From NCBI RefSeq assembly GCF_035594765.1, contig NC_085842.1, positions 146,209,036 through 146,273,035 on the forward strand: a DNA stretch of 64,000 nt, written 5' to 3'. A model generated the notes under the pieces. It was not told where the DNA came from and made no database searches. It saw only the letters and a program-made list of their open reading frames with translations. The DNA is from Anolis carolinensis (Eukaryota). Made by a program: the position numbers and the translations under genes. Shown here piece after piece: positions 421 to 45,007 of the stretch (the first letter of the stretch is position 1; each line of letters starts with the position of its first letter).

Positions 421-1462
421 ATTAAAGAATATCCGGTGCTATGGGTTATATTTCAGAAGAAGGCTGGCAAAACCATTCTGAGTATCCCCTGCCTAACAAA
501 ACTATATGAGGTTTATGGGATTGTGGTGAGTTGACACGTAATCTAAAGTACTTGCAAACATACAAGTGAAGGAGTTGAAGAAATCTGGTACTAAGAAGGG
601 AAAAACTGAAAAATAGAACAAGTACCACCTGGACACTCCACCATGCTGAACTTTATGGAACAGCAGTCAAAATAAAGTCACTGCTAAAATAAACTATGTC
701 AAATTCTATTTGGAGTTAATAAAAAGGCATTTGGGAGTGACAGTAAACAGAGGTTCTCTGGTCTGATGAGACAAAAATGTTCAAATTGGTGGAGTGTCCA
801 AGACTAAAATGTTAAATTTTGGTCTTGCAAAAACAGAAAACATTTCCTCTGTAGTAAACATTTTATGCATGCAAAAAATTTTGTGTAGTTCTATCTTCAC
901 AAAATAATTCTTCTACTACATTTTGTTGCACTGGAATATGAGATGGATACAGTGAAAGAATGCTACTTTTCTCCTACAGCATTGTTCATCTTTTCATGTG
1001 AAATCAAGGATTTATTTCCCATAACCAAAGTAATATTAGAATGGTTTAAAAATTCCCATCATGACCTAAAGACAGAGGTTGTGCAAAAGGTGCAGATATC
1101 AGAACTTACTCCATTCCAGGGGCACAGTATTAAGAATAAAGAAGGTTATCAACAATGGAAACACTGTTGTAAAGAATGCCCAGAAAGGAAAGTATTGCTT
1201 TCCCATCAATTGCTGTCTTTAAAAATTAGGATTAAAACTATTACATTTTAACCTCGGCTATAACTTTTGAGCAATTAAAAGATCTAGGAGTATTCCAAGA
1301 GAGAGCCATGTGAGGATTAAAATTAGAATATAATTATAGAATTTAACCCTGGGTAGGTTAGGCAAAGGATTGGGTCCAGGGAAGTATCCACAACACAAAA
1401 TTTGACCAATTTGATACTACTCTAATTGTGCTGCAATTATCCTGTAGAAATGAGTGGCTCAC

Positions 1463-2252
1463 CTTTCTAGTTGCATTGTCATGGACCACCACCAAGTGTC
1501 CAGCAAGGTTAAGGCAAATATTATCTGCATCTGGCCAGGTCTGCTGATGACTGGAGAAGTAGTAACATTTTGTCTGGAACTTTTGCCAGTGATCTGGACA
1601 TCGAGGAATAACTGCAAAGCACAGAGACCTGGATAAGACAGCATGACATTGAGAGGATTCTGTCTTCCCAAAATAAACATGCACCACCAACCTCAGCTAC
1701 TATCATAACCACTTCTTCACACTAGCACAGCTTCTACTGGACTCTCCATTATGTGGGTCCAATACTATGAATGTGAATATTTGTTTGTTTGTTTGTTCAA
1801 CCTCAGCCTGAGTACAGACATGTTGTCTTTGGTCACTACCATGGATCATCACATCAGGCTGATGTATTATACAACAAAGGCTTGTTCTGCCCCTTTTCTT
1901 TTGGATTGTGTGGCTCTGAGCGTAATCTTCTCTATAGCAGCCTGGTTACTAGTTCCCACGTATGTTTGTTTGACTATGACTCTAGAGCAGGGGTCCTTAA
2001 ACTTTTAAAGCAGAGGGCCGGTCCACAATCCTTCAGACAGTTGAGGGGCCAAATTATCATTTGGGGGGAAAAACCGAACAAATTCCTATGCACACTGCAC
2101 ATGTCTTATTTGTAGTGCAAAACAACAATAACAATGAAAGAACAATACAATATTTAAAAATGAAAATAATTTTAACCAACATAAACCTATCAGGATTTCA
2201 ATAGGAAGTGTGGGTCTGCTTCTGGCCAATGAGATAGTCAGGTTAATTAGGG

Positions 2253-2295
<43 letters not shown>

Positions 2296-5200: not shown

Positions 5201-8200
5201 TAATGAGAGGGAAATAATCATAAACAGGAACTAATATAGCCATCGCAAAAGTTGGGAAACACTGCAGGAGCTGAGATCAAAAAGGACGTAAGATGGGTTG
5301 ATGTGGGAGGACTGATATTCCATCATGCCTTGGTGCATGGCATGTGAGCCTATCATCTTTGCACCTTCTAACTCCAGTACTTTTGAGAAAACAGAGGACA
5401 CGCCTAGGCTGAGCCGATGAAAAAGAATAAAGCCCTGTATTATAAAATCTGGAGCAGGCGAGTTGTGATTTAAGATGAAGAATAAGAATCTTACCTTTGC
5501 ATTCTGTTCTTAGCTCTTAGAGAAAAATGGGTCTAATATGTAGAACTGATAATAGAATAATACATTGGAAGAGACCACAGGGGCCACCTAGTCTGACCCC
5601 CTGCCATGCAGGAAAAGCACAATCAAAGCAGTAGTGCTGAGAAAAGCTATTACTCAAGAGTGTGTTTATTTTACCCCTCTTCTCAAATATGACTCATCAG
5701 TCTGACAAATAATTTTGTTTTATGAATTATAACTTATGGGTTATGAGAACTAAAGATATCTAAAATAATATTATGATGTGGCCTCTCATCTCAAAGGGCT
5801 TCATCAAGCAGCACTTTGGTTAGATGGTCTGTGATAGAGTGACTTCTTAAAAAGACTCTATTGGGATTTATGCAGGTGATGGGTGCTTCCACACTAGACT
5901 TAAATGGGCATTGAAGTGGATTAAAAAAACCTGCTTCGGCACGCATTTAAATCTTCACACACACACCCCAAAAGCCAGGCTTTCCCGGGGTGGGGTCTAT
6001 GTGCCACCCCAAAGCCCCCCAAAATAATTCCTAAAAGTTTAAAAAAAATATCATGCAATATTATCTTCCCTTTTGCGCTCTCCTGGCCTGAGAAAATAAC
6101 ATGACAGGAGACCGGGGGAGGGGGGGATTTTCCTTCTTGCCTCCCCTCTCCTGGCACGTCATTTCCTTGTGCCAGGAAACCACAAGGAGAAAATAATGGC
6201 AACCGGGTAAGTTTATAAAAACCCTTTAGGCGTTATTTTAGGGTTTTGGGGGAGGGGTGGGTGTCCGCTTGGTTTTTTGTACCCATGGAGCCCTAAAAAC
6301 CAAGATGGCTGTGTGGACTGGGCCCAGGGATTGCGTGACGTGGTCCCTGGACTCAATCCACACAGGGCCCACACTTGGTAAGGCCCAGATCTTACCAGGT
6401 TTCTAATTAATTCAGAACATCTAGTTTGTTACAAACTAATTCAATTCTACCAGAGACGTCATTTGAATGCCTCCAGTAAAACCAAGACAGGTTTCAGTTT
6501 AAAGGCCTGTCTGGATGGGCCCAATGAGAATATTAATTTTCCACATTGTTTGCTAAAAGCCTTTTTTAATCTTCAAGCTAGGAAAATATGACTTATGGAT
6601 CTGATGGCCAAGAATGTTAGTGCTGTTAATCATTTCTTACCTGGTCTGGCCTTCATGGTTTGTTCTGGGACTTGTTGCTGCCATTTTAGGAAACTTGAAG
6701 GTATAACATTCTCATAATCCCTTTCAGAATTTGCAATACTGACCTCAGACCCTAGAGAAAGAAACAACTGAGAAATTCTGGTCTTCAAAAGTAAAGCTTG
6801 CTTGTTTAATCCCCATGACAGAGATGTGAAATTGCCATGAATCACAGCATCAGGTAAATATGCCTCAGATCCTATTCATATAAACACATTCACTGGAAAA
6901 ATAACAATTCCTTAAATATCCACTCCCTATTTACAGAGAAGCTTCTCCCTATGACATCTTAAAAATCACATTGGAGGATCTATGTATATGTGCAAACTGA
7001 TCCGCTGGCTGGCTGGCTGGCTAGCTGGCTGGCAAGCTTTTCAGAAGCATTGGCATTGGAAGAAAGGTGAAGGAGGAAAAGCTGGAGGAACACAGTCTTG
7101 ATTTTGTCTGCAGCGTTTGGTAGTAAATAGACAAGATCTTGAACTAGAAAGATAAGGCACATTACTGAAGGCTCCCTCATATTTGGCAATGTTTTCACAG
7201 CCTAAAGGTAAGGCACATCACTGAAGACTACCTCGGACTTGGCAATGTTTACACAGCCTAAAGAAGCGGAGCTTCTAGGATCTTTAGTGCAATGTTTTTA
7301 TGGATAACCTCAGTGGCCTGAGGCCCAGGGAATTTTAATGGTACATGTCGTAGTTATTAAGCTTGTTGTATATGGTTTATGGGGCCCCTGGTGGCACAGT
7401 AGAAATGGAGATGAGCACCAACCCCAAGAGTCAGACACGACTGGACTTAACGTCAGGGGAAACCTTTACCTATATGGTTTATGTAATGTGTTATTTATTT
7501 ATCTGTTATGATGTTGTGCTATCTATGTCATGTAATTTTTGTTGTTTTAACCATCGTTTGCCGCTTTGAATCCCACCCATGGGAGAAAAGCGGGAGAAAA
7601 ATAAATAAATAATAGCTAATCCTATTGTAACAATATGTGGCTCCCAGTGGTGAATATCCTGGAAAGCACTTCCTTTACAAAGGATAGAATTAACAGATTA
7701 TTTGTGTTTGTAAACAAAATGTTTTCCTGGCTGTTCCCTAAGAGGGTATTGGTGGGGAAGGAGTAAAATCATGGGAATGTAAAGACACTTTCTGGAACAT
7801 GGCCACACAGCCCGAAAGACATACAACAACCCTGTGATTCTGGCCATGAAAGCCTTCGACAACATAAAGACACCATTGTTCTGCTGTAATTGTCATTTGC
7901 CTCCCCTGTGTGATAAATTCATAACTAGTAAATAATCTGAATCCAGATGAAATGTAGCACTCTGTCCAGGGTACTACTTTTATCCTTTCTTTACTTTACA
8001 CACTCTCTCACACAAATTGCCCAAAATTTTGAAAGCATTATTTGAATGACATCAACGTTCCTTTCTTTTTCAACCAAAGGCCAGAAAACGCAGAATAGTG
8101 TAACATCCCTAATGACTGCTGGAGAGGAAATGAGGGGTGGATGGAAGGGACATGTGATAGAATGTATGATCTACCACATGAGTTGCTGAACTGCAATTGT

Positions 8201-9159
8201 CAACCCCTGTGAACTATGATGATCTGTCCATAAGCAGTGTAATTATTCTAAGAAAGACACTGAAGAGAAAGCTAAAACCGATACTGAAGATAGACTAGGG
8301 TAAGTCCGATGGGCCAGCATGATGTATTGGTTTGAGTATGGACTCTGTAAACCAGGGTTTTCATCGCCATTTGGTGATGTAAACCCTCTGGGTGATTCTG
8401 GGCAATTCACATTCTCTCAGCCTCAGAGGAAGCCAAAGGCAAACCCTCTCTGAACAAACCTTACCAAGAAAATTCCATCATAGGGTCACTATAAAGTGAA
8501 AACAATCTGAGAGCACCCAACAACAAGTTAATCTTGGATAAAGCACTGCTTCCCTAACATTAAGCTGACATTAAAAACAAGTCAGTCAGAAAACTGGTGA
8601 GAAATCTCATTTAGGATTGAATGCTAGCTTCCTACCAATTCAGATCATCATTCTCCCCTACAATCAGGTTTCCTGGCCACTAAAAGTGAAAAAGCATTCT
8701 CCCTTCCCTTAGACATATTGAGGTTATCCCCACAACCCCTTTAGATTTATTCAGATTAAAGGCCCTTCCACACAGCCATATAACCCAAAATATCAAGGCA
8801 GAAAATCCCACAATATCTGCTTGAAACTAAATTATCTGAGTCCACACTGCCATATATTCTAGCTTAAAGCAGAAAATGTAGGATTTTATTCAGCTGTGTG
8901 GAAGGGGCCTTAGTGGGGCAAATAGCTTCTGCTCTATTTTGCACAGGATGTATCTCTGTTCCAAGACATTTGGCAAGCCTTTCTGCCCCTTGTCAAGTTT
9001 TAGTCTCACTTTGTAAAAGTTGCTTCAGTGATTGGAGTGAATAGCACAATTCATCAGAACAAAGTGTAGATAAGTTATAATATTATAAAGACGTCTTTCA
9101 CGGCAATGTGGTCCAAACTCCCTCCGAGCTTAGTTCTTACCTGGTCTACGGGTCTCCAT
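1463..9159 (-). CDS. Type II transmembrane C-type lectin-like receptor A (partial; remaining CTLD exons not found, probably beyond the left edge)
   Basis: Exons with GT/AG ends and consistent phase: 9159-9141 (METRRP), 6751-6641 (GSEVSIANSERDYENVIPSS...KARP), possible 21-nt micro-exon 5515-5495, 5122-4997 (TM: YSWIGLLSILMCAFLLIAISAFVLAFLK), 1611-1463 (CTLD start IPRCPDHWQKFQTKCYYFSSHQQTWPDADNICLNLAGHLVVV). Confidence 0.8.
1988..2725. mobile_element. Non-autonomous hAT DNA transposon
   Basis: TIRs CAGGGGTCC...GGACCCCTG; 8-bp TSD CTCTAGAG at 1980-1987 and 2726-2733; contains a (GTT)n tract and an AT-rich interior. Confidence 0.85.
2252..2293. repeat. (GTT)n microsatellite
   Basis: Direct reading. 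Confidence 0.95.
7380..7612 (+). mobile_element. Deleted or chimeric Sauria-type SINE
   Basis: GGGGCCCCTGGTGGCACAG head, GGGGAAACCTTTACCT motif and a GAAAAGCGGG...AAATAAATAAAT tail. Confidence 0.5.
8760..8910. mobile_element. Palindromic MITE (Harbinger/PIF-like)
   Basis: TIRs GGCCCTTCCACACAGC...GCTGTGTGGAAGGGGCC; many related copies in the window. Confidence 0.7.
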
Positions 9160-9199
9160 GTGTTGTTCTTCCCTGGTGTTGAGCAGCTTCAATGTGGCA

Positions 9200-9360
9200 G
9201 GACAGTTGAGTCATTTAACATTCTTTCTCAAGTGAGCAGTGTGTCTATTTCCGCAAAGACAATGATCCATTTGTAAAGGAGTGGATCTCAACGGTTGCTG
9301 CATCTTGCAAAAAAGCCTCACAGGCTCTTCCTGTAGCTGAGAAACCACAGACAATGTAGT
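9200..9360 (-). promoter_or_regulatory. Candidate promoter of lectin A
   Basis: AP-1 TGAGTCA 9207-9213, ETS core CTTCCT 9327-9332 and RUNX AACCACA 9343-9349, directly upstream of the ATG exon. Confidence 0.4.
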
Positions 9361-10095
9361 TCCCAAAACATGATTCCTATGCCAGCTCCTTCAGATTACT
9401 CCCCTGTCAGTAAAGGTCAATAAAACCAAACAAGAGAAAAATAGGGAAAAGATTATAATGTATAAGAGTCACAGGGGTTCGTGAAAAAATATATATTTTT
9501 TAAAAAAAATATCAATGTCACTGTATGGACTATTTTTAAAAAATGGACTAGTTATCTCATGAACCCTTGTGAGTCTTATTTTCATTTCTGTTTCTGAATA
9601 AGCAAGAAACAATATAGAAAGGGAAGTCAGGGAATGTAAATGATATTTTCTCCTACTAGATCTGAGGTGGGTAGGTGTGGAGGCAGAGTTGCAGTGGTCT
9701 ACTGTTAAACCATCCCACTGATCAGATGCCCTATCCTACAGTCTGAGGGATTTGAATATATCCATTTAAAGTGCGAAATTGATTCTGTCAGTGCTACCCA
9801 CCATACTGCTCAATGGCCTTCCTTCTTGAGCTAGCTGTGTGGATTGAGTTGGCGCTGGAATTTTTTCCACTAGTGATGCTGGAGGACTTCATGCTAAAGC
9901 TGTTTCATTTGGAGTGGTTCAAGACTTCATGGCTGCCATGACAATCATGAATCTGTCCCATGTAATATTCAGCCTAATTCGTATTGCTGGCCACACTTTA
10001 GAGCTAGATGGGATGATGATGATCTTAGAATGGAGCAAGTTTTTATCATTCTGTTGTCATAGACTGAGAATTGGAGCCTTTGTGGGGGTGGGGGA

Positions 10096-10153
<58 letters not shown>
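10096..10153. repeat. (TTA)n microsatellite
   Basis: Direct reading. Confidence 0.95.
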
Positions 10154-10154
<1 letters not shown>

Positions 10155-10546
10155 GTAAGTAAGTAAAGTAAGTAAGGGGGAAATATTAACATGGCCTATC
10201 CCAGAAGGTTGATGGATGTGGATGGCTTCTTGAAGTGTTTCCTGCTATCTCAGGTTTAAGGTTTAACACTTAACAAAATCAGTTTAGAAATCTTGGACAC
10301 GTTTTCATGTCTTGCTTTATCAATCTGCTTATCTTGTGATGCTGAGTTATAGCTAGATACCCTGTTTATATAATGGGTTAAACATTGGTACTAACAGATC
10401 CCTAGGGTCTATTTACATTATAAAATATAGCACTGGGGTGTCATTTTAACTGCCATGGTTCCATCTTATGAAATACTGAGATTGACAGTGAAACTGGGAA
10501 AATTGAGAGCTCTTGAGTAGAGTGCTCTCTTGCCTCTATGGTAGTG

Positions 10547-10681
10547 CAGTGGTTGTCAACCTAGGGTTCCCAAATGTTTTTGGCCTTCAACTCCCAGATA
10601 TCCTAACAGCCAGTAAAGTGGCTGGGATTTCTAGGAGTTGAAGGCCAAAAACATCTGGAGACCCCAGGTTAAGAACCACTG
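10547..10681. mobile_element. Short hAT-type MITE
   Basis: CAGTGGTT...AACCACTG termini around a hairpin core; related copies at about 43022-43157, 43365-43496 and 61029-61163. Confidence 0.7.
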
Positions 10682-11439
10682 CTCTAGTGGGACTATGATA
10701 ATTAAAGTGGAATAATAGTATTACAATTCTATAGTGAGAATAGACTCCTGGTTGACTGCTGGAATGTGAAAATGGCATGACTGGCTGTGGGTATAGCTTA
10801 TTTCAGAACAGAGCCAAGTCAGCTCCCTGCTTTTTCAAGGAGCTAGCTGTGAGCAAGTGAGATGGAAGGCAGAATAATGTTAGCAGAAAACCTCAAATCT
10901 AACTAAATACATACTGTTCAAAGGTTTACTCTGTAGCAATGCAGGCAACAAAGAAATGATTGTTTTCTGTCATCATTGCATCTACAAAAGAGACATCTGG
11001 CAAAGCTGTTTCAAATACTCCAAGGTCTATTACCTTCCTGTTCCCAAGAAGATAAACCACTCAACACTGTGAAGAAGTTGCAGATGGAAATAGTGTAAAC
11101 TTATCACTAACATGATTCTCGATAAAGCACATATTACATTCCTTCTGAAATTCTTTCAATTTTTCCCATTAGCCAATGCATGGAGTGAATATTGTTCAAC
11201 TTTATTGTAGCTTTCTTCAACCTGCAACCTCCAGTTGTATTTAATGACAATTTCCATTATCATTATTCAGGTGCTTGGATTGCAGTACAATACATCTTAA
11301 GGTCACAGGGTTGAGGACAAAGGATGTGGCTGATAAACCTAGACTATATATATAACAAAATGTCGAATTTGCCTATTTTTCTCCAGGCACAAACTTCCTT
11401 AATTACAGCTGTTGGGGATAAGAGACAAGGCCTTCTTAG

Positions 11440-11883
11440 GCCCCTTCCACACAGCTGTATAAAATCCACATTGAACTGGATTATATAGCAGTGTGGACTC
11501 AGCTAACCCAGTTCAAACCAGATATTGTGCTGTGTGGAAGGGCCCTTAGAGGCTGGTCCTAGGCTTTGAAACTCCCTTTCTAGGCACCCTAGGGCCTTTC
11601 CACACAGCCGTGTAACCCAGAATATCGAGGCAGGAAATCTGGTTTGAACTGGGTTATCTGAGTCCACACTGTCACATATTTAAGTTCAAAGCAGAAAATG
11701 TGGGATTTTATTCAGCTGTGTGGAAGGGGCCTTAGGCTCTTTCTACACTGCCATATAAAATCCAGATTATCTGCTTTTAACTGGTTTATATGGCAGTGCA
11801 GCCTCATTTAATCCAGTTCAAGGTAGATAGTGTGTTTTATCTGCTTTGATAATCTGGATTATATGGCAGTGTAGAAGAGGCAT
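11440..11883. mobile_element. Cluster of three palindromic Harbinger-like MITEs
   Basis: Repeated GGCCCCTTCCACAC / GTGTGGAAGGGGCC-type termini with TTA/TAG flanks. Confidence 0.7.
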
Positions 11884-12335
11884 TAGAGTTCTTCCCTTTA
11901 CAGGCATTTTTAAATTATTATTCTGACAAGGTTTTGATAATCAAAGGTTTTTAAAGAAAGGATTTTAAGAGGTTGCTGCAGTGGCACTTTTTACAATTAC
12001 ATTTTTTAGCTGGATGCTTTTGTTTTTAAATATTGTTGGTATTTTGTTGGAGGTTTTTTTTAAATATATATATATTTAAAGCTATATTGAATTTTGATTT
12101 AAAAACTGTTTGAATCCTGGTTCTGGTGAGATGAAAGCTTATAAAGAAAGATAATAATCATAGAACTGGTTCATAAAATGGCTATTCCCCCGCTGTAAAC
12201 ATGTTACCCCACCTCAATAATGCTGTTGCACCCCTTCCCTTTTCTTTGCTTATATAGTTCACCATAGTCAGCAGTGACTACACAAGAGACTGGCTCCAGA
12301 GTTAAGAAATTCCTTTTGAGTACTTGTGCAGCATT

Positions 12336-14391
12336 TGTTGTCGACCGCACTTTAGGGGATCGGGCCCTTAAGGAGAGACCCGACCCGGTCCTGAGGGAAC
12401 GGACCTTGGCGAAGCCAAAAGAAGAATATAAGCCGCAATACAACCTGAAGCCTGAAATGAAGAAGGTCCGCCAAAGTTGAAGGAAAATCCGCCAAGGAGT
12501 TTTTATTGAGCAATTCAGCTGAAAAGGACGCTAATAGCGATCATTCAATCTACTAGCGTAACATATGTTTCAAATAAAGTCATATTTATACAATGTTTCG
12601 GTCTGACAGCCCTTTGAATTTCCCGCCCCGCTTCCCTGCCCATCTGATCGCGGATAGGCTGAGAGGTTGAACGAGGCGGGCTTTCGTTTCCCGCCTTGCC
12701 CTGCTGGCCCAATGGGGAGCCGTTTTTTGTCCCCCCTCGGGCCAATCAGAGAGGAGGAGGCGGGAGCTATTGAAACAATGAGGTGGCAGGACAGGAAATA
12801 TCAGATTAATTCTGGCCCAGCCGATTTCTAAAGGAATAAATGGCACCCATCAAGGATGTCCGGGGTCCTGTCACGTTCACAGATTTTAGATATGCCTTGG
12901 GGTGTCAGACGGGAAGTGGTGATGGGTGGTGATGAGCCGTCATTGACGGGCCCCACAGGGTGCCTTCCAGCGGCGTCCTGGCCTGGGATATGACAATGTT
13001 TGCCTTGGGGGCGAGTCACCTTTTGGAATTTGGTGACTCTAAACCCTATATTGTCCATGCGATCGGAATGAGATTGGATTAAACTGTGGCAGATTATCCT
13101 TTTGTTTTTGGGAAGGGAGGTCTGGGTCATAGGGCTAAGGTTCACGTTGGGGTCATAATATTTCCCATTTGATTTCATGATTTGGCAATTATATGGGATA
13201 GAATGAAAATTAAAATAAAGTTGGAACATAAACCCAGCTGGGAAAAACACATATTTTCCGGGGATCCCAAAGAGTATAAATACATATAGGCAGATAGCTA
13301 GATTTCAAGGAGGAAAGGGAGAATCCATAGAGGGGGGGTTACATTGCACAAAGGGGAACCATGAATGATATAAGCAATAGAAAACATTTGATAAGGACGA
13401 AGTTCACAACATCTGGGGAACCCGATATGGAAATTCATAAGAGTGGAGTTCTAGCAGCATAATTTCACAATCCATGAAGTTAGCCCAACGATTAGAAATT
13501 CATACAACAGTGAGTCATGAGAGTGTCCAAGTACATAGAATATGAAAATTCATGGATACATGAGGAAAAAGAGTTCATCTGTGATGGGAGGAATTCGTAG
13601 AGGTGGCATGGGGAAGAGGCACATGTGGGTTGCAGTCTTTGGAAGTATAGGATTTCATAAGTCCAGGGGTAGGTCTGGGGAAGAGTGTTCTTCTCCTTCA
13701 TAAAATCATGAAAAGTATGAATGAAACGTGGAGGGCACCCGTCCGGGCATCCCCTGGCAGCTGTAGAGGGTGAGGGTCCTTGGAGAACTATGTCTCCCCA
13801 GCGAGAGAGCGATCCCCCATCCCCAGGTCACAGAAAGGGGGTAGGTATCTCTTAAACCCATTCCGCGGGCCGCGGGGAGAGGAAAATCCGGGATAAGGCA
13901 GCAGCTTGGCTTGAAAGGAGCCGTCGGTCCCGTTTGACAGTCAGCTGTTGAGGTGCCGAAAACTGGACCGATTCCGGTTCTGCTGGTTGTCTTCGAGTCA
14001 GGAGCCTTAGAAAGGGTTAGGACTAAAAGAGGAGCGTTCTAGGGGTAATTTTGATAGAGATATGAGCCAATTTGTATCGTCCGCCATGTTAATCTATGGC
14101 GGAGAAACCTCAACCGGAGTTAAAAGGACGGGAGGGAGAGAGAGAGATTGCATGCAAAGGAGGGAGTCAGAGAAAAGATACAAAATAACCAGATAGAGAG
14201 TGTTATTGTTAAAATAAATGCTACTTTTATTGGGGGATTTTGTTACATAGTTCAGGGAAGGGGAAAATGAAGAAAAAAAGTCTTTTAATAATAGTCTGCT
14301 GCGGTCCCGCTTCGTTCCTTTGGAGAGTAACCTGCGGAACTCTCCGCTGCGTTTTTTTAAATTAATTTAGAAGCCGGGGTTTCGGTCATCA
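12336..14391 (-). repeat. 3' LTR (2056 bp)
   Basis: TGTTGTCG...GGTCATCA; minus-strand TATAAATA at 12590-12583 and AATAAA at 12507-12502; four ORF-track translations identical to the other LTR. Confidence 0.95.
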
Positions 14392-14403
14392 TATTCCCCA
14401 CTC
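14392..14403 (-). promoter_or_regulatory. Polypurine tract of the ERV
   Basis: Minus strand GAGTGGGGAATA immediately precedes the TG of the 3' LTR. Confidence 0.7.
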
Positions 14404-15039
14404 GGTAAGGGCGGGGCGAAGTGGGAGGAGCCCATTTCGCCCCTGCCCTACCGCATAAGCATTATAACCTCTTAGCGGCAGCCTGGCCATCTGCTGAGAG
14501 GGGTTCGAATGGTTCTTTTTGCGACAAATTTGGAACAGAGCGGGCAAATGCGACCAGCAGCAGCTTATTATTAGAAGGAAAAGGATTACAGCTAGAAAGA
14601 GGAGAAAACCTTTGCAAAACCGGGCTAGAATTGACAGGGAGGGTTAGAGAAGAAAGGAGAATTAGGGTTAGGGTTAGTACGCTGGACAGCTCCCCGCGCT
14701 GAAGGATAGGGAAAGAACAGGGAAAAAAAATAGAGTGAAAATTAGAACTCACGGCTCCTGATTCAGCACGCCGGACAGCTCCCAGCAGGGAACCTAAGGT
14801 GTTCAGTTCTTCCGAGCGGGGGGGGGGGGGTTGAAGTGAGGGCCGATTTGACAGCTGTCAAAGTGAGCTGTCAAATGTTTGTAGGTCCAAATAGGGGTGT
14901 TCCCGTGGTGCTAGAAGGATGGGATTTGGAGGGGTCCTTGGAGGGGGTCTTGTGCTTCCGTCTCTGGCGTTTGGTCTTTCTCCGGACCTCGGGAGGGTGT
15001 GGGTCAGGACAGCTTGCGGGCGGCGGACCCTGAGGAGGT

Positions 15040-15850
15040 GTTTTCCGGAACAACACCTTCAGGTCGTCTCCCGGCTCAGCAGTCCACAGGTCTTTGTCTT
15101 CCTCACCGCTGGTGGGGGCTGGTTCTGGTTCAGGAGCACTCTTGATGGATCCTGGCACGGATTCCAGCACCTTGCAAGCGGTGTAGGAGGTCAGGAGGAC
15201 TTCGAGGTGGTTGTGATGCCATCTTCACCAGGCGCCTCCTAGTGTCCACAGCCAGGTCCAGCCCTCCCACCCGGGAGGAGGTCCGAGGGGTAGAGAATGC
15301 CTCAAGACAGCAAAGAAAAGAGATCACGTGTCCCATCCCCCTTCCCCTTCCCCCAAGACCCTAAGTGTGGAGGGTTAGTTTTATAAGGAGGAATAAAAGG
15401 AGAAAAAAATGGAAATAAATCATTCATACCTTCTGGGACATCTTCAATACTGAAGGTTCCTCTGGCACCCTCGCAGCCATGTTAGGGCTCCCCACTCGCG
15501 CCTGACCCAGCGACCAACAGCGAGGGTCCTGTTCGTGGCTCCATGGGGACACACCTTTAGCCTCTTCTCAGGTGAGGGGGGGTCGCCCTTACCTGCCAGC
15601 CTTCTCCTGGTCTCGTGGGGGCGCCCTTCCCTCCCTGCATTAGAAGGGGGATGTTCTTCTGCTCAGGGTCAGCCTTACGACCCCTGCCAGGGGTTGGAGC
15701 CAGCTTGTGGGTGGGGGCCTCATCACCGTGATGGCACCCCACTGGTTGCTCTCGCCTTATCTGAGCTGGGTTTCTCAGAGTCCCTTTATAGCCACAGGAG
15801 CGGATGATGGTCCTGGTAGTCCAGGTCGGAGTGGAGTGCCTTCCATGTGG
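15040..15850 (-). pseudogene. Decayed retroviral integrase relic
   Basis: Fragments in different frames (RPGEGWQ; RW...EVLLTSYTACKV; AGIRARIH; WTAEPGDDLKVLFRK) match, in order, class I ERV integrase motifs PGEDWQ, W.GPY.VLLTT.TAVKV.GI..WIH and CEPLEDLKLLF. Confidence 0.65.
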
Positions 15851-16649
15851 GGTGCCAGGATCCCCATTCTACAATTCCCAACGGTCCCTTTTATACTGAG
15901 AGAGTGTTAGTAAAACCCCTAACCCATTGTATACACAGTCATTCAAGAGATAGCAAACAAGAGGGAGAGAGAGAAACAGAGAGGATAGCTCAAGGAAGAA
16001 AATCATGAGGAAAAGGAACAAAACTTGGTTCCCCACATTTAAAGGACAGACAAAGCTCCAATGTCAAGGCAATCAAACAAAGAATACTACTCAGAGAACA
16101 GGGAAGCCCCAGGCAGGACTCAGCCAGTCTCTGAAGATGGAAGGTTTTCCAAAGATACACAATAACCCCCAGAGAGGAGGGGGGCTGAGAGAGAAAGATT
16201 TAAAAAGGGGGGGTTTTTGCAGGGTTGCCCAAAGGGATTGGGTGAGGAAAAAAGAAAAAGGGAAAGGAGTCTTTGAAGACACAGGATCCTTTTGTTTGAG
16301 CAAATTTCAAGGTGTGACCTGACGATTTGGAAAGAATGCCAGATCAAAGGTCCCACTTACAAATTGTAACCAACAAAAATGCAATTTGACAGTCTAAAAA
16401 TTTATGTTCCTCTGGGATCTTTGGGGAGTTTCTAGAGATTTTGGGTAAAGTTTTGAAAGCAAACAGAAAAGAAGAAGGAAAAAGGGGATTGAACTGTGAC
16501 CCAAGAAAATTCAAAAACAGATAGCTTTTTAAAGGAGGGAGAGAGGGGAAAATGATTCTTTGGAAAACTATTGACAATACATATTCAGGCTTCAGATAAA
16601 ACAGAGGATGGCAATGGATGTCTTATGGTCTCTGAACAGTCAATTCCTC

Positions 16650-17504
16650 CTTCCCCTGCCTCATCCCCCCCAGGGCCCCTCCTTTCCCCCTGTTCCTCTG
16701 GCCAAAAAGGACGAGCGAGAGGAAGAGAGGGAGAGATTAAGGGAGGGGGGCTGCAAGGGGGGAGAAGTCTTGGGGTGGAATGGAAAAAAAGGCTTAGAGG
16801 GATTCGGTTGGGGGGGGTGGAGAGGGAATAGGAGGTTGGGAAATGGAGGGGAGATGGGGCTGAGAGAAAACAGAGGGCTGGGAAGCGGAGGGGGGACGGG
16901 GTGAAATGGCAGGGAGTTGGGAGAGTGAGTCTGGGAGAGTGGGATCCCGGGAAGCAGAGGTTCCCTTGAGGGGTCGATTTGGGGGTTCTGGATCGGTGCA
17001 GGACTCAGGGTGAGGAGAAAAGGTGGGGATGGGGATTGGAGGAGGGGGCTGATGGGGTGGGGAGGAGGCAAGCAAATGTGTCCAGAAAATCCTCTGGAGG
17101 AGGGGGTAAGGGGAAAAGGGTCTAGGGGGGAATCTTTGGGGGGTTGTTTTTGGAGCCCAAATCTCTGCATGGGAAGACGTGGACCCCCCTCCCCCCCTCC
17201 GATTCTCTCCCTGGCTTAAGGCCATGAACATCGCAGCATAAGCAAGTTGGGACCACTTGCCCTCCCCCTGGCGAGTCACCTTAGGTCAACACTCCGAATT
17301 CGGCGACTCAAGCAAGGGGGGGCAAGCTGTTCCCCCTTCAAGGGCCACAAGGGGCCACTTATGTGCTCTGAGTTAGCCCAACCTGGCCTGCACCATGTTT
17401 TTGATGCAAAGCCCACCCCAATTGGCCAGGACCTTTCCCAATGGAGAATCCCTGGGGATGTCTGCTGGGGTGGGACACCCTAGATGTGCTGAACAAACAC
17501 CCAT
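16650..17504 (-). pseudogene. gag: Decayed retroviral gag (matrix plus proline-rich region)
   Basis: ATG at 17504 gives MGVCSAHLGCPTPADIPRDSPLGKVLANW...stop; after a frameshift EGKWSQLAYAAMFMAL. These match the class I matrix pattern IP.DSPLG.IL.NW...EGKWSE.PYVQAF.AL; a Pro-rich stretch follows. Confidence 0.75.
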
Positions 17505-18112
17505 TCTTGGCTCAACCCCTGCCCAGTACCTGACAGTTAACGGAGTAACGACTCACCCAACCGGCTAGGTGCCGCTCGTCCTTCCGAGAGTTCCCTTCAC
17601 CAAGACTGAATGGCTGGCGTCCGTGGAATCCGCAGGTGCCCCGGGAACACAACCGTTCCCCTACCCCGCGATTCTTGGACCTGTAATCTTACAAGCCAGA
17701 CTGTTCTCACACGCCCCCCGGGCGCCAGATGTTCCCGCGTTTCACCAGGAATTTGTTACCGAGCCCTGATCCGAAGTGCAATACCTCCAGGGCTCCTCCC
17801 ACCTGGGTCTCAACAACGGGGCCGGTTCCCTTTTATTTTTTACAGGGCGTCCCCTGTTTCACGTTGGCGCCTTTCCTTCGAGGAGCTAAAAATCTGCTTC
17901 CTCCTATCTGGCTCCTTTGTTCAGTACCCTGAATCAGATCTAGAGAGAGAAAGGGACTGCCAGAGAAATTTGGATGTGAAATGAGGTCAAATTGTTGGTC
18001 GGAGGGCCCTCCTTGCAGCCGTTTCTCTCCCCAACCTGTTCCAGAATATCTGGACCAAGGTCGCCGCTTGGAATTTTAGCCTAAAAAATTGATTTTCGGA
18101 ACTTCCAAGCAA

Positions 18113-18132
18113 GTCCCTTCGTGGTAAAGCCA
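18113..18132 (-). promoter_or_regulatory. Primer binding site, tRNA-Arg(TCG)-like
   Basis: Plus strand GTCCCTTCGTGGTaaaGCCA, 5 nt from the 5' LTR, resembles the vertebrate tRNA-Arg(TCG) 3' end GTCCCTTCGTGGTCGCCA with a small insertion. Confidence 0.7.
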
Positions 18133-18137
18133 AATTA

Positions 18138-20193
18138 TGTTGTCGACCGCACTTTAGGGGATCGGGCCCTTAAGGAGAGACCCGACCCGGTCCTGAGGGA
18201 ACGGACCTTGGCGAAGCCAAAAGAAGAATATAAGCCGCAATACAACCTGAAGCCTGAAATGAAGAAGGTCCGCCAAAGTTGAAGGAAAATCCGCCAAGGA
18301 GTTTTTATTGAGCAATTCAGCTGAAAAGGACGCTAATAGCGATCATTCAATCTACTAGCGTAACATATGTTTCAAATAAAGTCATATTTATACAATGTTT
18401 CGGTCTGACAGCCCTTTGAATTTCCCGCCCCGCTTCCCTGCCCATCTGATCGCGGATAGGCTGAGAGGTTGAACGAGGCGGGCTTTCGTTTCCCGCCTTG
18501 CCCTGCTGGCCCAATGGGGAGCCGTTTTTTGTCCCCCCTCGGGCCAATCAGAGAGGAGGAGGCGGGAGCTATTGAAACAATGAGGTGGCAGGACAGGAAA
18601 TATCAGATTAATTCTGGCCCAGCCGATTTCTAAAGGAATAAATGGCACCCATCAAGGATGTCCGGGGTCCTGTCACGTTCACAGATTTTAGATATGCCTT
18701 GGGGTGTCAGACGGGAAGTGGTGATGGGTGGTGATGAGCCGTCATTGACGGGCCCCACAGGGTGCCTTCCAGCGGCGTCCTGGCCTGGGATATGACAATG
18801 TTTGCCTTGGGGGCGAGTCACCTTTTGGAATTTGGTGACTCTAAACCCTATATTGTCCATGCGATCGGAATGAGATTGGATTAAACTGTGGCAGATTATC
18901 CTTTTGTTTTTGGGAAGGGAGGTCTGGGTCATAGGGCTAAGGTTCACGTTGGGGTCATAATATTTCCCATTTGATTTCATGATTTGGCAATTATATGGGA
19001 TAGAATGAAAATTAAAATAAAGTTGGAACATAAACCCAGCTGGGAAAAACACATATTTTCCGGGGATCCCAAAGAGTATAAATACATATAGGCAGATAGC
19101 TAGATTTCAAGGAGGAAAGGGAGAATCCATAGAGGGGGGGTTACATTGCACAAAGGGGAACCATGAATGATATAAGCAATAGAAAACATTTGATAAGGAC
19201 GAAGTTCACAACATCTGGGGAACCCGATATGGAAATTCATAAGAGTGGAGTTCTAGCAGCATAATTTCACAATCCATGAAGTTAGCCCAACGATTAGAAA
19301 TTCATACAACAGTGAGTCATGAGAGTGTCCAAGTACATAGAATATGAAAATTCATGGATACATGAGGAAAAAGAGTTCATCTGTGATGGGAGGAATTCGT
19401 AGAGGTGGCATGGGGAAGAGGCACATGTGGGTTGCAGTCTTTGGAAGTATAGGATTTCATAAGTCCAGGGGTAGGTCTGGGGAAGAGTGTTCTTCTCCTT
19501 CATAAAATCATGAAAAGTATGAATGAAACGTGGAGGGCACCCGTCCGGGCATCCCCTGGCAGCTGTAGAGGGTGAGGGTCCTTGGAGAACTATGTCTCCC
19601 CAGCGAGAGAGCGATCCCCCATCCCCAGGTCACAGAAAGGGGGTAGGTATCTCTTAAACCCATTCCGCGGGCCGCGGGGAGAGGAAAATCCGGGATAAGG
19701 CAGCAGCTTGGCTTGAAAGGAGCCGTCGGTCCCGTTTGACAGTCAGCTGTTGAGGTGCCGAAAACTGGACCGATTCCGGTTCTGCTGGTTGTCTTCGAGT
19801 CAGGAGCCTTAGAAAGGGTTAGGACTAAAAGAGGAGCGTTCTAGGGGTAATTTTGATAGAGATATGAGCCAATTTGTATCGTCCGCCATGTTAATCTATG
19901 GCGGAGAAACCTCAACCGGAGTTAAAAGGACGGGAGGGAGAGAGAGAGATTGCATGCAAAGGAGGGAGTCAGAGAAAAGATACAAAATAACCAGATAGAG
20001 AGTGTTATTGTTAAAATAAATGCTACTTTTATTGGGGGATTTTGTTACATAGTTCAGGGAAGGGGAAAATGAAGAAAAAAAGTCTTTTAATAATAGTCTG
20101 CTGCGGTCCCGCTTCGTTCCTTTGGAGAGTAACCTGCGGAACTCTCCGCTGCGTTTTTTTAAATTAATTTAGAAGCCGGGGTTTCGGTCATCA
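18138..20193 (-). repeat. 5' LTR (2056 bp)
   Basis: Direct repeat of 12336-14391; adjacent to the PBS. Confidence 0.95.
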
Positions 20194-20484
20194 CATTCAC
20201 TGCATATGGCAGGAAAATATTTAGCATTGGAGAATCCAGATTCTCAGAAATGAGGCATCCCTATTCACAGGTCCTCAGTTTTACCACACTTCATCCTCAG
20301 TTTATTCATTTTTATTCAGAAAGTCTTCTGGTTATTTGTTGGTAATTGGAAATTGGGCTTTTGATTAATTGTTGCTGAACTTCTCATGCCCACATGCATT
20401 TAAAAAAACAACAACCATGCAATACTGTTTTAATAATATAATCTGTTTCTGTTTCAGCTGGAAATGATGATATATAAGTAAGCA

Positions 20485-20515
20485 AATAAATAAATAAATA
20501 AATAAATAAATAAAT
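20485..20515. repeat. (AAAT)n microsatellite
   Basis: Direct reading. Confidence 0.9.
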
Positions 20516-21789
20516 ACTTGCATGGTACAGAAAAACTATTAATTCATGCTTAGAGGAGAGATAAAGGGAGACAGCTTCATAAAAATCTGGTCAACATTTC
20601 ACCTCTACAACATAGATATGAATTCAACACCTTGACCACCAATACATCAGTTGAAGTGCTGGAATATTACTTTTTGACACAATGATTCACAATTGGAAAG
20701 ACACTGAGGAATTGTGCCTGGATTTGATTTAAGCATGCTGAGTGGAAAATGTGTAGGTCTATGATAGCTAAATGTATTAATTTAACTAATGATATGTGTG
20801 TGTGTGTGTGTGTGTGTTTGCAAATGTACTTAAAATTTAAATACAATATAATTTTAAAAGAATTATAATGAGAATGTTTTGACTAAGTTATATTTGCAAA
20901 GTTCCGGCTTCCAACAGAAAGCAGCATTTTGAGATTAGAAAACAGAAGCAGCAGCTGTTGTCAGCCTCCTCGAAACATGCCCTTTGGTGGATAATGCAGA
21001 AGTTGGTTAGTCATTCCTTATTCTTACAAAAGCTTCAAACAGGAATGAATTAACTGCCTGCTTCTGTGCCCATAAATATTTTGTAGCCTATCTAAGATTA
21101 CGTATCATCACAATGGGGTGACCTGCTTCCTTATGATCTCTCCACTCACAATTTTGAATTTGTATTTTTTGTTGTTAATGGCAGCCAAGTCGACTATGAC
21201 TGACAGCAACCCTATGCATGAGCAATCTCCAAAATGTCTCTACACTGTAGAGTTAATGCAGATGGGCATAATTTAATTGCTATGGCTTAATACTATGGAA
21301 TCATGGTACTTGTATTTTTACAAGGTCTTCAGCCATCTTTGTCAAATAGTGCGTGTGTCTCACCATGGAGTCTGTCCACCTGTTAACAGGGCTTTCCTTT
21401 TTTCAACTGCCTTCTACCTTAATAAGCTTGTTTTACTTCTCAAGAACAAATTAAGTCTGAGCCATCCATAGAAGACAAGATGATTAAACTGAGATCAGGC
21501 ATCTCACAGTTTCAGTTTCTTGGCTTCTATGAACGGCTCAGGCTTAATTTGCTTGTCTTTTTTAGTAACACTCCTTATTGTACAATGAGCCTGATAAACA
21601 ATGACAAACAAGAAACTCAAGTCTTGCATCCCAAACTAAACCTTAGGCCATCAAGATTTGCAACAAAAACATCATCTGAAAGGCTGGATATGATAAATTT
21701 TATGCTTAATGCTTCATTTGGACCCAGGTCAATTGATGGACATTCAATCATTCAGAGGCCCACTTAAAGCCCTCTGAATTTTTGAATGC

Positions 21790-22126
21790 AATAGATTGCA
21801 GCTCCCTAGATATTATCCATGTGGAAATGCCAGCCTAACATTTGCGCCATTAGACATTGGCCACGAGATGGAGTCGAAGAACATGCTACGAGGTGGAGTC
21901 CACAACATGCTAGTGTGGAGAAAAGCTAACCACAGACCACCTATGACAATGCAGTCTTAGCCCTACCACATGCACAATGGAGGACCTTCCCATAGCAACA
22001 CCAGAGGCACTCAAGTGGCCAGACACTGGTCATAGGACATTTAGTATCATGCCATGTTTTTAACTTTTTGTTTTCAAATACATTACAACTGTACTCTTGG
22101 TTCACTTCTGACACAATAAATAAATA
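21790..22126 (+). mobile_element. LINE 3' end (family uncertain, Vingi/RTE-like)
   Basis: Cys-rich C-terminal relic ending in CACTTCTGACAC(AATA)n; a similar tail is on the SINEs at about 37.0 and 63.0 kb. Confidence 0.45.
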
Positions 22127-22185
22127 ACTGTCCACAAAACAGTACTTCTATTGGGTCACCCGAAATGTTCACACTGGCAATGAAG

Positions 22186-22612
22186 GTCCACATAGTTAAA
22201 GCAATGATATTCCCCATTGTAACCTATGGATGCAAGAGCTGGACCATAAGGAAGGCTGAATGAAGGAAGATAGATGCTTTTGAACTCTGGTGCTGGAGGA
22301 AAATCCTGAGAGTGCCTTGGACCGCAAGAAGATCCACCCAGTCCATCATCCAGGAAATAATGCCTGGCTGCTCACTGATGAAGTATTTTGGCCACATCAT
22401 GAGAAGACTGGGAAACTTGGAAAAGATTGTGATGCTGGGGAAAATGGAAGGAAAAAGGAAGAGAGGCCGACCAAGGGCAAGATGGATGGACGGTATCCTT
22501 GAAGTGACTGGCTTGACCTTGAAGAAACTGGGGGCGGCGACGGCCGACAGGGAGCTCTGGCGTGGACTGCTCCATGAGGTCACGAGACGACTGAGACGAC
22601 TGAGTGAATGAA
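22186..22612 (+). mobile_element. RTE-BovB LINE 3' fragment
   Basis: PWTARRSTQSII...KYFGHIMRR...LEKIVMLGKMEGKRKRGRPRARWMDGI...DRELWRGLLHEV, the typical BovB ORF C-terminus. Confidence 0.9.
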
Positions 22613-23328
22613 CACACACACACCAAAATATTCAAAATACATAATCCAAGGCTTTGAAACATTGGCTTCTGCTTCTGGGAAAGATGTTAAAAATCCTACA
22701 GAAGCAACCATGGTGGAGTCATCACCATGTCTCAGATGTTGCTTCTGTTATCAGTTAAGATGGTCTGGAGCAGGCATCCTCAAACGGCAGCCCTCCAGTT
22801 GTTTGGGCTTCCAAATCCCAGAATTCCTGACCTCTGAATAAGCTGGCTAGGGCTTCTGGGAGTTGAAGGCCCAAACAGCTGGAGGGTTAACGTTTGAGGA
22901 TGCCGGGTCTGGTGGGATCTCAATGCAGCCATAGGACACATCTCTTCTTAGGTTTTTCTTCACTGCCATATAAGGCAAAATGAAACTGCACTATATGATC
23001 AGTGTAGACACTTAGAATACAGTTTTGACTGCATTACGAGTCTGCACTGATTCTATAAGCTGCTTCAAAATGAATTATATAGCAGTGGACATGGGGCCCT
23101 AATGTGGGGACTAGGGAGCTAGGGAAATAAAAGGTAATAAAATTTCAACTCATTTTTATCAACAAAGTAGCTTATGTTGCCTGAATATTAAGAACTGTTA
23201 CGTTAATACTGCTAACTGAGTTGAAATTAGAGTATATCTTTTGTCCCTAGATCTCCACTCGGCCAAGAAGCAGAGTAGTCCCTCTCCTCCCTGGGATCCC
23301 TGCAGACCATCTAAACTGGCAACAGAAC

Positions 23329-25812: not shown

Positions 25813-26024
25813 AGGCTTGGAGATGATGACTAACTGATTCTGTGGTGGAGATTGGGTCCAAAGCTGGCTCTACGTGGTTTAGTAATCACCCGTTACCTTA
25901 CATTAGCTTGCTTATTTGACTTTTGTATAAATAACATTTATGAATTGCTATGCATTCAGAAAAAAGGTTACATTGGCTCAGCAAGGTGTTAACCATACCA
26001 ATAACTTCTTTTATTTTCAGCACC

Positions 26025-26591
26025 ATGGATGCACGTTTTACCCGTGGAAAGTCTGCTATCCTTGAGCGGTCACTAACTCGACCCAAGACAGACATCAGCC
26101 TCAGTGCCTTTTCACTGCTGTTTTCTGAGATTGTGCAGTACTGCCAGAACAGGGTCTACTCTGTTTCAGAGCTGCAGAACAAACTTTCTGAACTGGGTCA
26201 GCAGGTGGGAGCCCGTATCTTGGATGTGCTTGTGATGCGGGAGAAGAATGGCAAGAGGGAGACCAAAGTCATTAACATACTGCTCTTCATCAAGGTGACT
26301 GTGTGGAAGGCTCTTTTTGGGAAGGAGGCTGACAAGCTGGAACAAGCCAATGATGACGATAAGACCTACTACATCATCGAGAAGGAGCCTCTCATCAACA
26401 CTTACATCTCAGTTCCCAAGGAGAATAGCACTCTGAACTGTGCCTCCTTCACAGCTGGCATTGTGGAGGCCATGCTGACTTGCAGTGGCTTCCCTGCCAA
26501 AGTCACAGCCCATTGGCACAAGGGCACCACCCTCATGATCAAATTTGATGAGTCAGTTATTGCCCGAGACAAAGCTCTGGATGGCCGCTGA
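26025..26591 (+). CDS. TRAPPC5: Trafficking protein particle complex subunit 5 (188 aa, single coding exon)
   Basis: MDARFTRGKSAILERSLTRPKTDISLSAFSLLFSEIVQYCQNRVYSVSELQ...FPAKVTAHWHKGTTLMIKFDESVIARDKALDGR; Kozak CACCATGG just after the splice acceptor at 26020. Confidence 0.98.
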   Translation: MDARFTRGKSAILERSLTRPKTDISLSAFSLLFSEIVQYCQNRVYSVSELQNKLSELGQQVGARILDVLVMREKNGKRETKVINILLFIKVTVWKALFGKEADKLEQANDDDKTYYIIEKEPLINTYISVPKENSTLNCASFTAGIVEAMLTCSGFPAKVTAHWHKGTTLMIKFDESVIARDKALDGR

Positions 26592-44862: not shown

Positions 44863-45007
44863 ATCATATCAGATATGATGTGTGTGTGTGTCCCGTGGCT
44901 GGGTAGATAGAAAGGAAACTGATCATGATAGAGAGAGCCTAAGCATCCGGTCCCAGTGGGTAATATCTGCCCGAAGTATGATTTTTTCCACACAGCCTCC
45001 AACAGCT

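Follow-up and report, generated by a model that had tools for sequence, protein, structure and literature searches.

The window analysed here is a stretch of 64,000 nt from the genome of Anolis carolinensis. On its minus strand lies an LTR element of 7858 bp (12336-20193), in which two LTRs of 2056 bp, the 5' LTR at 18138-20193 and the 3' LTR at 12336-14391, enclose an interior of 3746 bp. Pairwise alignment bears out the claim of a first-pass annotation that the LTRs are without difference (0 mismatches in 2056 positions), an identity that is known from the assembly sequence, the short-read contigs having been compared with one LTR only. The identity breaks off sharply at either end. The LTR termini are TG...CA and the target site duplication (TSD) is intact, as had been proposed, with the same 4 bp at 20194-20197 (the provirus 5' side) and 12332-12335 (the 3' side). 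A match of this length has a chance of about 1/256. Duplications of 4 bp are typical of gamma-like integrases.

The borders within the LTRs were inferred from CCAAT and GC boxes, a TATA box (LTR position 1802) and an AATAAA signal (LTR position 1885; 12507-12502 in the 3' LTR). They predict a U3 of about 1.83 kb, an R of about 80 bp and a U5 of about 145 bp. Five bases past the 5' LTR is the primer binding site (PBS; 18113-18132, minus strand), which had been described as intact and of Arg type. It is in fact imperfect: an 18-nt PBS listed in the supplement of PMC4724089 begins with the same TGG and has a core of 13 bases in common with it, but is two bases shorter. It is of the Arg/Trp type rather than clearly Arg, as the supplement table types the shared motif as Trp and a near-identical one as Arg (PMC4724089). 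The polypurine tract (PPT; 14392-14403, minus strand) is present as claimed but short, with 10 purines among 12 bases. The structural features of a class I element (TG...CA LTRs, a tRNA PBS, albeit imperfect, a PPT and a short TSD) are all in place.

Downstream of the PBS is a CpG-rich leader (17505-18112, minus strand; CpG observed/expected 0.76), the predicted packaging region. It is more structured than shuffled sequences (fold z -2.8, and -3.2 for the window spanning U5 and the PBS). At the other end of the interior, a non-coding 3' segment (14404-15080, minus strand) contains a strong splice-acceptor-like tract near 14700 and a long hairpin ahead of the PPT. This segment is shared with coding relatives, since C-terminal pieces of the proteins P0005 and P0007 match it at 14853-14806 and 14675-14631. 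When folding was assessed in 38 sliding windows, five had z <= -2.6. These lie on the promoter, U5-PBS, the matrix relic and the PPT, and none lies in the middle of the interior.

Two broken coding relics are found between the leader and the 3' segment, and homology confirms both of those that had been proposed. The larger (17504-16721, minus strand) is a gag relic that corresponds to residues 1-255 of a 679-aa Gag, which is the matrix and a proline-rich p12-like part only. In a frameshift-aware alignment with P0006, 168 of 241 aligned residues are identical, with 7-8 frameshifts and at least one stop; three such alignments gave 67-70% identity and 7-8 frameshifts. Calling this relic barely recognisable was too pessimistic, given 70% identity and a tblastn E value of 2e-57 to an Anolis carolinensis Gag. 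The smaller relic (15224-15081, minus strand) is a broken integrase C-terminal tail, with 39 of 46 residues identical to P0007, two frameshifts and a tblastn E value of 1e-14. P0007 itself carries the MLVIN_C domain (PF18697, E 6.5e-16). It came from a full phmmer scan in which one of four matches was real (the other three, P0008-P0010, share 35-36% identity and were set aside). The tail by itself has no Pfam match, and nothing relevant to it turned up in a word-indexed protein search, the ESM Atlas or the PDB. The lesions number about 8 in the 780 bp of the gag relic and 2 in the 144 bp of the integrase tail.

The relics are separated by a 1.5-kb non-coding middle (15225-16720, minus strand), made up of an AT-rich, CpG-poor part and a GC-rich part with two splice-donor-like motifs. 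It has no Pfam match below E 0.1. Searches of the interior for further coding sequence were likewise negative. Pfam identified no family in any of the six interior frames (stops read through as X), a single chance-level row (E 0.066) in 12 frames of the interior and LTR, and nothing below E 0.04 in 24 smaller pieces of the window. Alignment scores of the capsid-nucleocapsid and upstream integrase regions against the interior fall within the shuffle range. No capsid, protease, RT or env was detected in the interior, in agreement with the earlier statement that RT and env are not visible. Two relics suggested by eye were rejected: an env transmembrane relic at 14643-14392 matches no env family and owes its appearance to T-richness, and an integrase-core relic near 15600 has no PDB or Pfam support. 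Rfam returned four matches, all far under their gathering scores, and the window contains no tRNA genes. CpG content divides the element. The observed/expected ratio stands at 0.66-0.76 for the LTR, leader and 3' end but falls to 0.20 for the gag relic and to 0.04 for the AT-rich middle; the host flanks have values of 0.17-0.22.

The closest coding relatives belong to a class I ERV family of Anolis carolinensis with open Gags (UniRef A0A803SNE1 and A0A803TAJ9) and integrase tails (A0A803TGE3 and A0A803T313). The open Gags P0002 and P0006 each have a Gag_p30 domain (PF02093, E about 1e-39) and one zf-CCHC stretch (PF00098), and their best PDB matches are Gag/capsid p30 chains. The open-Gag proteins are 96-97% alike in the capsid-nucleocapsid and 97-100% alike in the matrix; for the integrase tails the figure is 98%, from P0007 against P0011. 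Such likeness fits a young coding helper family. The element resembles this family in its matrix/p12 part (70% identity), in 39 of 46 integrase-tail residues and in the shared 3' segment. However, in the family the capsid, the zinc knuckle and the complete C-terminal domain of the integrase are all preserved. The element is a class I (gamma/epsilon-like) ERV derivative by comparison with these relatives, a placement that draws on a Gag_p30-type Gag with one zinc knuckle and, through P0007, on an MLV-type integrase C-terminal domain, the element itself having no RT. A recently active helper had been predicted. The young Gag and integrase-tail family fits this, but an open pol with matching LTR ends and PBS was not among the matches: a search for a longer Gag-Pol relative returned only P0002 and no helper pol or RT. 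Searches of viral and metagenome collections yielded no relatives.

Contigs from public short-read runs address how many copies there are and whether this site is always occupied. In run X5 the flank contigs have a depth of 9.5-11, whereas single interior contigs reach 351-755. A 294-bp stretch of the non-coding middle is covered by one contig at a depth of 512 with 4 differences and without gaps, and single contigs of that region stand at roughly 35-75 times the flank depth, although contig depth is not a copy number and any copy estimate from it is rough. This suggests that the decayed interior is present in tens of copies. The claim of non-autonomy is supported: gag is broken, there is no intact pol or env, and the X5 depth indicates that the defective form has itself been amplified.

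The right flank is covered in three runs. In two of them, from different studies, contigs enter the flank at exactly 20194 from non-LTR letters (229 and 15 letters), and in the third (X1) a contig begins exactly at the TSD, at 20194. The contigs of the two runs appear to cross an empty site, which suggests that the site is empty in other animals. The insertion, described at first as very young, is probably recent and polymorphic. The LTR-flank junction is spanned by none of the 32 contig pieces listed, a listing that leaves aside a further 150,256 pieces.

Among the sites listed, the element departs from the majority of the family read depth at 22, and over a 144-bp part of the gag relic a sister contig from run X17 shows 4 gap letters. 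Some lesions may thus be private to this copy or its sub-lineage. Judged by the two readable contigs, sister copies are about 94-99% alike to the element. At two of the listed sites both LTRs bear the minority letter, which argues against polishing toward the family majority. Another X17 contig, of low depth and with a diverged leader, departs from the reference at the PBS-LTR boundary and runs 48 letters further. CpG decay was rejected as the cause of this copy's differences from the family majority (one of nine such G sites is in a CpG). X17 was also set aside as RNA evidence of expression: flanking repeats are deeply covered too, and the run may be DNA.

In our judgement the element is a non-coding class I (gamma-like) ERV derivative that probably inserted recently and was probably copied in trans with Gag-Pol from a coding family related to it in the same lizard. 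The best reading of its history is an old non-autonomous lineage that has recently been re-amplified in trans. The 5' LTR would drive an RNA of roughly 5.9 kb, and the leader would allow its packaging by helper Gag. Working from the imperfect PBS and the PPT, helper RT would regenerate a pair of identical LTRs, and the 4-bp duplication would come from helper integrase. The split of the interior from the helper lineage came long before the present insertion: the relic shares about 70-75% identity with helper Gag, whereas the helper Gags match one another at 96-100% in matrix and capsid-nucleocapsid. This implies that most of the decay predates the present burst. It may have built up gradually through many rounds of mobilization, as first proposed, or during one or a few long periods of dormancy followed by re-mobilization.

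What if the provirus is simply old and dead, its LTRs having been equalized by gene conversion, assembly collapse or polishing? The heavily decayed interior would fit, and the LTR identity does rest on assembly sequence rather than reads. However, a fixed insertion would be expected in all animals, which the apparent empty-site contigs contradict. The deeply multi-copy middle, the minority letters kept in both LTRs and the retained LTR CpGs also speak against it, and we consider it quite improbable. Even less credit is due to a DNA-level duplication or assembler misplacement in which this copy never retrotransposed. Such an event would accommodate the want of a listed contig across the LTR-flank junction, but it is at odds with the exact TG...CA ends and 4-bp TSD, with flanks at single-copy depth up to 20194 and with the start of the X1 contig at the TSD, which is what a two-allele branch would give. 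A variant of the preferred reading deserves more attention. In this scenario a long-dead provirus decayed in place, acquired a new LTR, leader and 3' end by recombination with a younger helper, and then underwent a single amplification. The sharp CpG contrast between those parts and the gag relic and AT-rich middle is what it predicts, as is the difference between sister contigs that are about 94-99% alike and a relic that is about 30% diverged from helper Gag. The diverged-leader contig that leaves the reference at the PBS-LTR boundary also fits, and mosaic ERVs are common in humans (PMC4724089). Nevertheless, lesions are about as dense in the CpG-poor gag relic as in the CpG-richer integrase tail, and a similar CpG contrast would result if cis signals were under selection through serial passages. 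Such a rescue is a genuine possibility, if not the likely one.

The one unusual trait of the element is its U3, about 1.8 kb without a convincing ORF or tandem array. Tandem repeats do not account for the LTR length (only one 19-bp row per LTR was found), and best local scores between the LTR and the interior are inside the shuffle range. A recurring TATGAA-type motif in the U3 was discarded because 17 of 200 shuffles equal it. Perhaps the U3 hides an accessory gene, as with sag in MMTV or nef in HIV, and the element is a cargo carrier. The LTR far exceeds the average length, which is about 600 nt, and ORFs are present in other long LTRs, that of MMTV among them (PMC2664473); there is also a sense stop-to-stop frame of 158 codons at 13304-12828. 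However, an equally long frame occurs in 19 of 300 shuffles, the frame has no Pfam match below E 0.06, and its best score in the ESM Atlas is 0.78 (recognition 1025). A hidden gene is therefore very unlikely.

To return to the trans-mobilized parasite, a bolder joint proposal can be formulated, although we hold it only tentatively and think it improbable as a whole. This would be a living helper-parasite pair in the germ line of a wild reptile. Recombination would have renewed the old, decayed interior, the partner being a young family with the longest class I LTR that lacks an ORF, and the 1.8-kb U3 of this LTR would consist of captured regulatory DNA and be free of tandem repeats. The parasite would still be inserting, here in sense orientation and 5.6 kb upstream of an exon from an immune C-type lectin gene, whose expression the 3' LTR could drive. 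No such pair in a lizard is described in the literature covered, a coverage that most subscription papers and Repbase fall outside. VL30 and ETn are already known for identical LTRs that enclose a dead interior, so the principle is familiar; what is of value here is the lizard setting and the long LTR. A segregating, recently amplified parasite together with a young coding partner would make it possible, in a species for which population genomes exist, to test whether non-autonomous ERVs originate by serial decay or recombinational rescue. The element also raises the question of what a 2-kb LTR does, and cautions that LTR identity and interior decay can imply very different ages.

How does the element compare with known non-autonomous elements? 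Papers on a named anole ERV1/LTR family were sought, and the 15 of 243 matches listed were unrelated. The family may already be included in the repeat library used in PMC7561263. The first-pass annotation offered a LARD/VL30-like parasite. LARDs have long LTRs and a non-coding interior derived from plant LTR retrotransposons. The element, at 7858 bp, shares with them non-autonomy and a size above 4 kb (PMC13570524). However, LARD is a plant size class, and the element is retroviral with recognizable gag and integrase relics in its interior, which leaves that half of the comparison as a size label only. The fitting analogy is VL30, although its LTRs measure a few hundred bp, against 2056 bp here. 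Mouse VL30 has near-identical LTRs, a PBS and a PPT around multi-stop gag/pol remnants without env (PMC4859993, PMC6466679). In 42 of its 86 full-length copies the LTRs flanking the decayed interior are identical (PMC4859993), so the pattern of the element is already known. The 3' end of the VL30 PPT consensus is similar too, with 9 bases in common (PMC4859993). In contrast, VL30 belongs to the mouse and is mobilized by MLV, whereas the element has a lizard host and homology to an anole Gag family. The VL30 PBS types are Gly, Pro, Gln, Met and Thr (PMC4859993), not Arg/Trp, and co-packaging, reported for VL30, is suggested here by analogy. The PBS type and the anole origin of the closest proteins place the element outside the VL30 lineage, a judgement made without direct alignment to VL30 DNA.

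The mouse ETn/MusD and ERV-beta4 groups present a similar picture: a non-coding LTR element with traces of the coding progenitor that supplies proteins in trans, and insertional polymorphism, which is probable for the element too (PMC6466679). In the small non-autonomous ERV-beta4 group, the derivative exists in 15-20 close copies and shows no retroviral homology over its middle half (PMC6466679). However, these groups are class II (beta-like), whereas the Gag_p30 and MLVIN_C relatives make the element class I, and the ETn helper has been shown experimentally whereas the helper here is inferred. The best reading is that the element works like mouse VL30 or ETn but is a member of neither.

The structure proposed for the ERV in the first-pass annotation is real. 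The ERV lies on the minus strand and spans 12336-20193, as delimited by its LTR pair and the flanking duplication. Its 5' LTR (18138-20193) and 3' LTR (12336-14391), both 2056 bp long and on the minus strand, align with 0 mismatches, start with TG and end with CA, and the same 4 bases border the ERV on either side (a 4-bp TSD). The PBS and PPT called with them are both present, with reservations. A primer site starting with TGG lies 5 bases past the 5' LTR end and has a 13-base core in common with an 18-nt PBS from the PMC4724089 supplement, a motif that it exceeds in length by two bases. A supplement table gives the motif as Trp type and a near-identical one as Arg type; according to the text of that paper, the two are scarcely distinguishable. 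The purine tract preceding the 3' LTR is short (10/12 purines), and its last 9 bases are common to the VL30 PPT consensus as quoted in PMC4859993.

The 2-kb LTR is the single odd trait of an element that is well testable in a model lizard. For a class I element this length is uncommon at 2056 bp, since the available text of PMC2664473 puts the LTR average near 600 nt and names as the longest LTRs those of MMTV (1300 nt, containing an ORF), HML and the spumaviruses. CCAAT, GC and TATA boxes and AATAAA cluster in the final 420 bases of the LTR, so the U3 would be about 1.83 kb. A repeat scan indicates that the length is not made of tandem arrays. The longest sense frame has 158 codons, is equalled in 19/300 shuffles, and has no family match in Pfam and no Atlas match. 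A short inverted repeat, with half sites that we take to be AP-1-like, is alike at about 17270-17315 (gag relic) and 18810-18850 (U3, with its counterpart in the 3' LTR); it caused false joints in the read comparison.

The interior contains both relics described earlier, but the gag relic is not barely recognisable. Pfam gave no match in the six interior frames, with stops read as X. From 32 candidates, a matrix-like stretch picked out two proteins of Anolis carolinensis; one of them belongs to a cluster that includes complete Gag ORFs (629 and 679 aa) carrying Gag_p30 and a zinc knuckle. Frameshift-aware alignment to residues 1-255 of the 679-aa Gag (P0006) places the gag relic at 17504-16721 on the minus strand, with 168/241 identities, 8 frameshifts and 1 stop. 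The same method gives 67-68% identity and 7 frameshifts against the other two Gag proteins, and break positions in the proline-rich part vary with the alignment. The integrase tail relic (15224-15081, minus strand) was tied by a full phmmer scan to an Anolis integrase C-terminal protein (PF18697), and has 39/46 identities and 2 frameshifts against the integrase-tail protein P0007. Capsid and nucleocapsid are absent by homology and alignment comparison with the Gag relatives. The 1.5-kb middle between the relics has no match above shuffled scores to capsid-nucleocapsid or to the upstream integrase part of P0007. RT and env, said to be missing, were indeed not detected in Pfam searches of the frames and smaller pieces or in a PDB search.

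What could have copied such an element? A helper had been predicted, and young coding Gag and integrase relatives do occur in Anolis carolinensis; a Gag-Pol protein was not retrieved in a search for a longer relative of Gag. These relatives probably represent the helper family. The coding family looks young, and the ERV interior seems to have split from it well earlier, because similarity among the open Gag proteins reaches 96-97% for capsid-nucleocapsid and 97-100% for matrix, whereas the matrix relic has only 70/93 identities to open Gag. The open Gags are 84-90% alike once p12 is included, and two integrase-tail proteins of Anolis are 98% alike. The 3' segment of the ERV has matches at 14853-14806 (14/16) and 14675-14631 (11/15) to the C-terminal ends of the capsid-bearing P0005 and of P0007, in that order; these ends probably derive from gene models spliced across coding copies with the same segment. 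A perfect 16-base palindrome lies at about 14846-14862, where the P0005-end match starts, and its TGACAG half sites are presumably MEIS/TGIF-like.

The absence of differences over 2056 bp bounds LTR divergence at 0.146% (95%). With rates assumed to be 5e-9 to 1e-9, the LTRs would be younger than 0.15-0.73 million years; with 2.1e-10, the rate taken from the available text of PMC6681179, the limit is 3.5 million years. The description of the ERV as very young thus draws on its apparent polymorphism no less than on the LTRs. Twenty read runs of a single organism, drawn from 8 studies, contain the stretch wholly or partly, and contigs of four were compared over 14392-22700, a region with one LTR only. 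At the right junction, contigs of runs X5 and X9 arrive at 20194 from 229 and 15 letters, respectively, that lie off the LTR, consistent with an empty allele; the start of an X1 contig falls precisely on 20194, consistent with two alleles. X17 does not cover this junction, and among the 32 contig pieces listed there is none that spans it. In the available text of PMC7561263, 28 anoles have 674 polymorphic ERV and 13,946 'other LTR' insertions, and anole LTR elements show a skew to singletons, consistent with recent activity.

The genome-wide copies expected of the decayed interior find support in X5, where single interior contigs have depths of 351-755 against 9.5-11 in unique flank. One 294-bp contig of the non-coding middle (depth 512) has 4 differences and 0 gaps. 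Depths added over contigs come to about 3,800 for the leader and the beginning of gag, and to 8,000-15,000 for two sites in the LTR. Because contig depth is no copy number, only the order is taken: roughly, tens of copies of the decayed interior, more of the leader and most of the LTR. Among 40 differences listed, at least 22 sites lie inside the ERV, nearly all with majority depth against the window copy. At 9/22 such sites, a small pre-filtered sample, the change is a transition of one kind, and only 1/9 is within CpG. Low-depth contigs of X17 and X5 match the leader (17907-18136) at about 80-85% identity and the match ends at the PBS-LTR boundary, beyond which the X17 contig continues for 48 letters; possibly they belong to a related ERV with a different LTR.

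Set beside the directly observed structure, lesions, coding relatives and deep cover of a dead interior, trans-mobilisation is the probable reading: the LTR would drive transcription of a ~5.9-kb RNA, helper Gag would package it, and helper Pol would reverse transcribe and integrate it. Misassembly or DNA-level duplication fits poorly and is very improbable. At two listed LTR sites the other letter has 85% and 93% of X1 depth; both LTRs have the minority letters, evidence against polishing towards the family majority, an artefact that the first-pass annotation had raised. Its other concern, lesions unique to this copy, keeps some force: over 17086-17231, an X17 contig (depth 178) differs by 5 letters and by 4 gap letters, and speaks against all lesions being common to copies. 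An old provirus with homogenised LTRs also fits poorly and is improbable, if slightly less so.

Within trans-mobilisation, the interior may have decayed serially over passages, or recombination may have rescued a long-dormant copy. The LTR, leader and 3' end have CpG o/e values of 0.68, 0.76 and 0.66, and the integrase-tail area 0.40, against 0.20 for the gag relic, 0.04 for the AT-rich middle and 0.17-0.22 for the host flanks. This contrast leans towards long genomic residence of the middle, a lean that the even lesion density does not share. In a fold scan of the predicted RNA (38 sliding windows of 300 nt, 20 shuffles each), five had z <= -2.6, none of them in the middle: one in the promoter region (-4.2), one at U5-PBS (-3.2), one on the matrix relic (-2.7) and two that cover the PPT (-2.7). 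At 14260-14600 (minus) a long hairpin is predicted right before the PPT, inside a long-range stem pairing the interior 3' end with the U3 start (z -4.5, 0/100 shuffles, in a window hand-picked after the fact). One might guess at a candidate export or packaging element.

Nearby, a type II C-type lectin-like gene has exons at 1450-6751 on the minus strand. Its lectin-domain exon lies near 1600 (Lectin_C E 9e-4), a stretch near 5075 is hydrophobic, and a candidate exon with DYENV spans 6751-6641. The ERV shares the gene's strand, and the end of its 3' LTR lies upstream of the candidate exon at a distance of 5.6 kb; no first exon could be placed for the gene. A TRAPP component ORF, presumably TRAPPC5-like, lies at 25944-26591 on the plus strand (PF04051 E 4e-44), 5.7 kb beyond the 5' LTR. 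A degenerate tandem array (six copies, ~137-140 bp units) occupies 49692-50421. Contig depth and frames mark very high-copy repeat fragments at 21871-22700, 44388-45005 and 48519-48800, which we take to be LINE-like; two frames tested had no Pfam match at E 0.001.

Among the papers listed by literature searches, none deals with this ERV family, which repeat databases may contain. PMC5753468 and PMC6001957, in their available text, serve as background only. The earlier LARD/VL30-like label is half apt: LARD, as used in the available text of PMC13570524, is a plant size class, but the anatomy matches mouse VL30. There, according to the available text of PMC4859993, 42/86 full-length copies have identical LTRs, gag/pol remnants are stop-riddled and env is absent. 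Class II parallels in the available text of PMC6466679 are ETn/MusD and a small ERV-beta4 derivative whose middle is non-retroviral. By analogy, the element appears to work like VL30 but is not VL30. The ERV is real, and its logic is already known from VL30.
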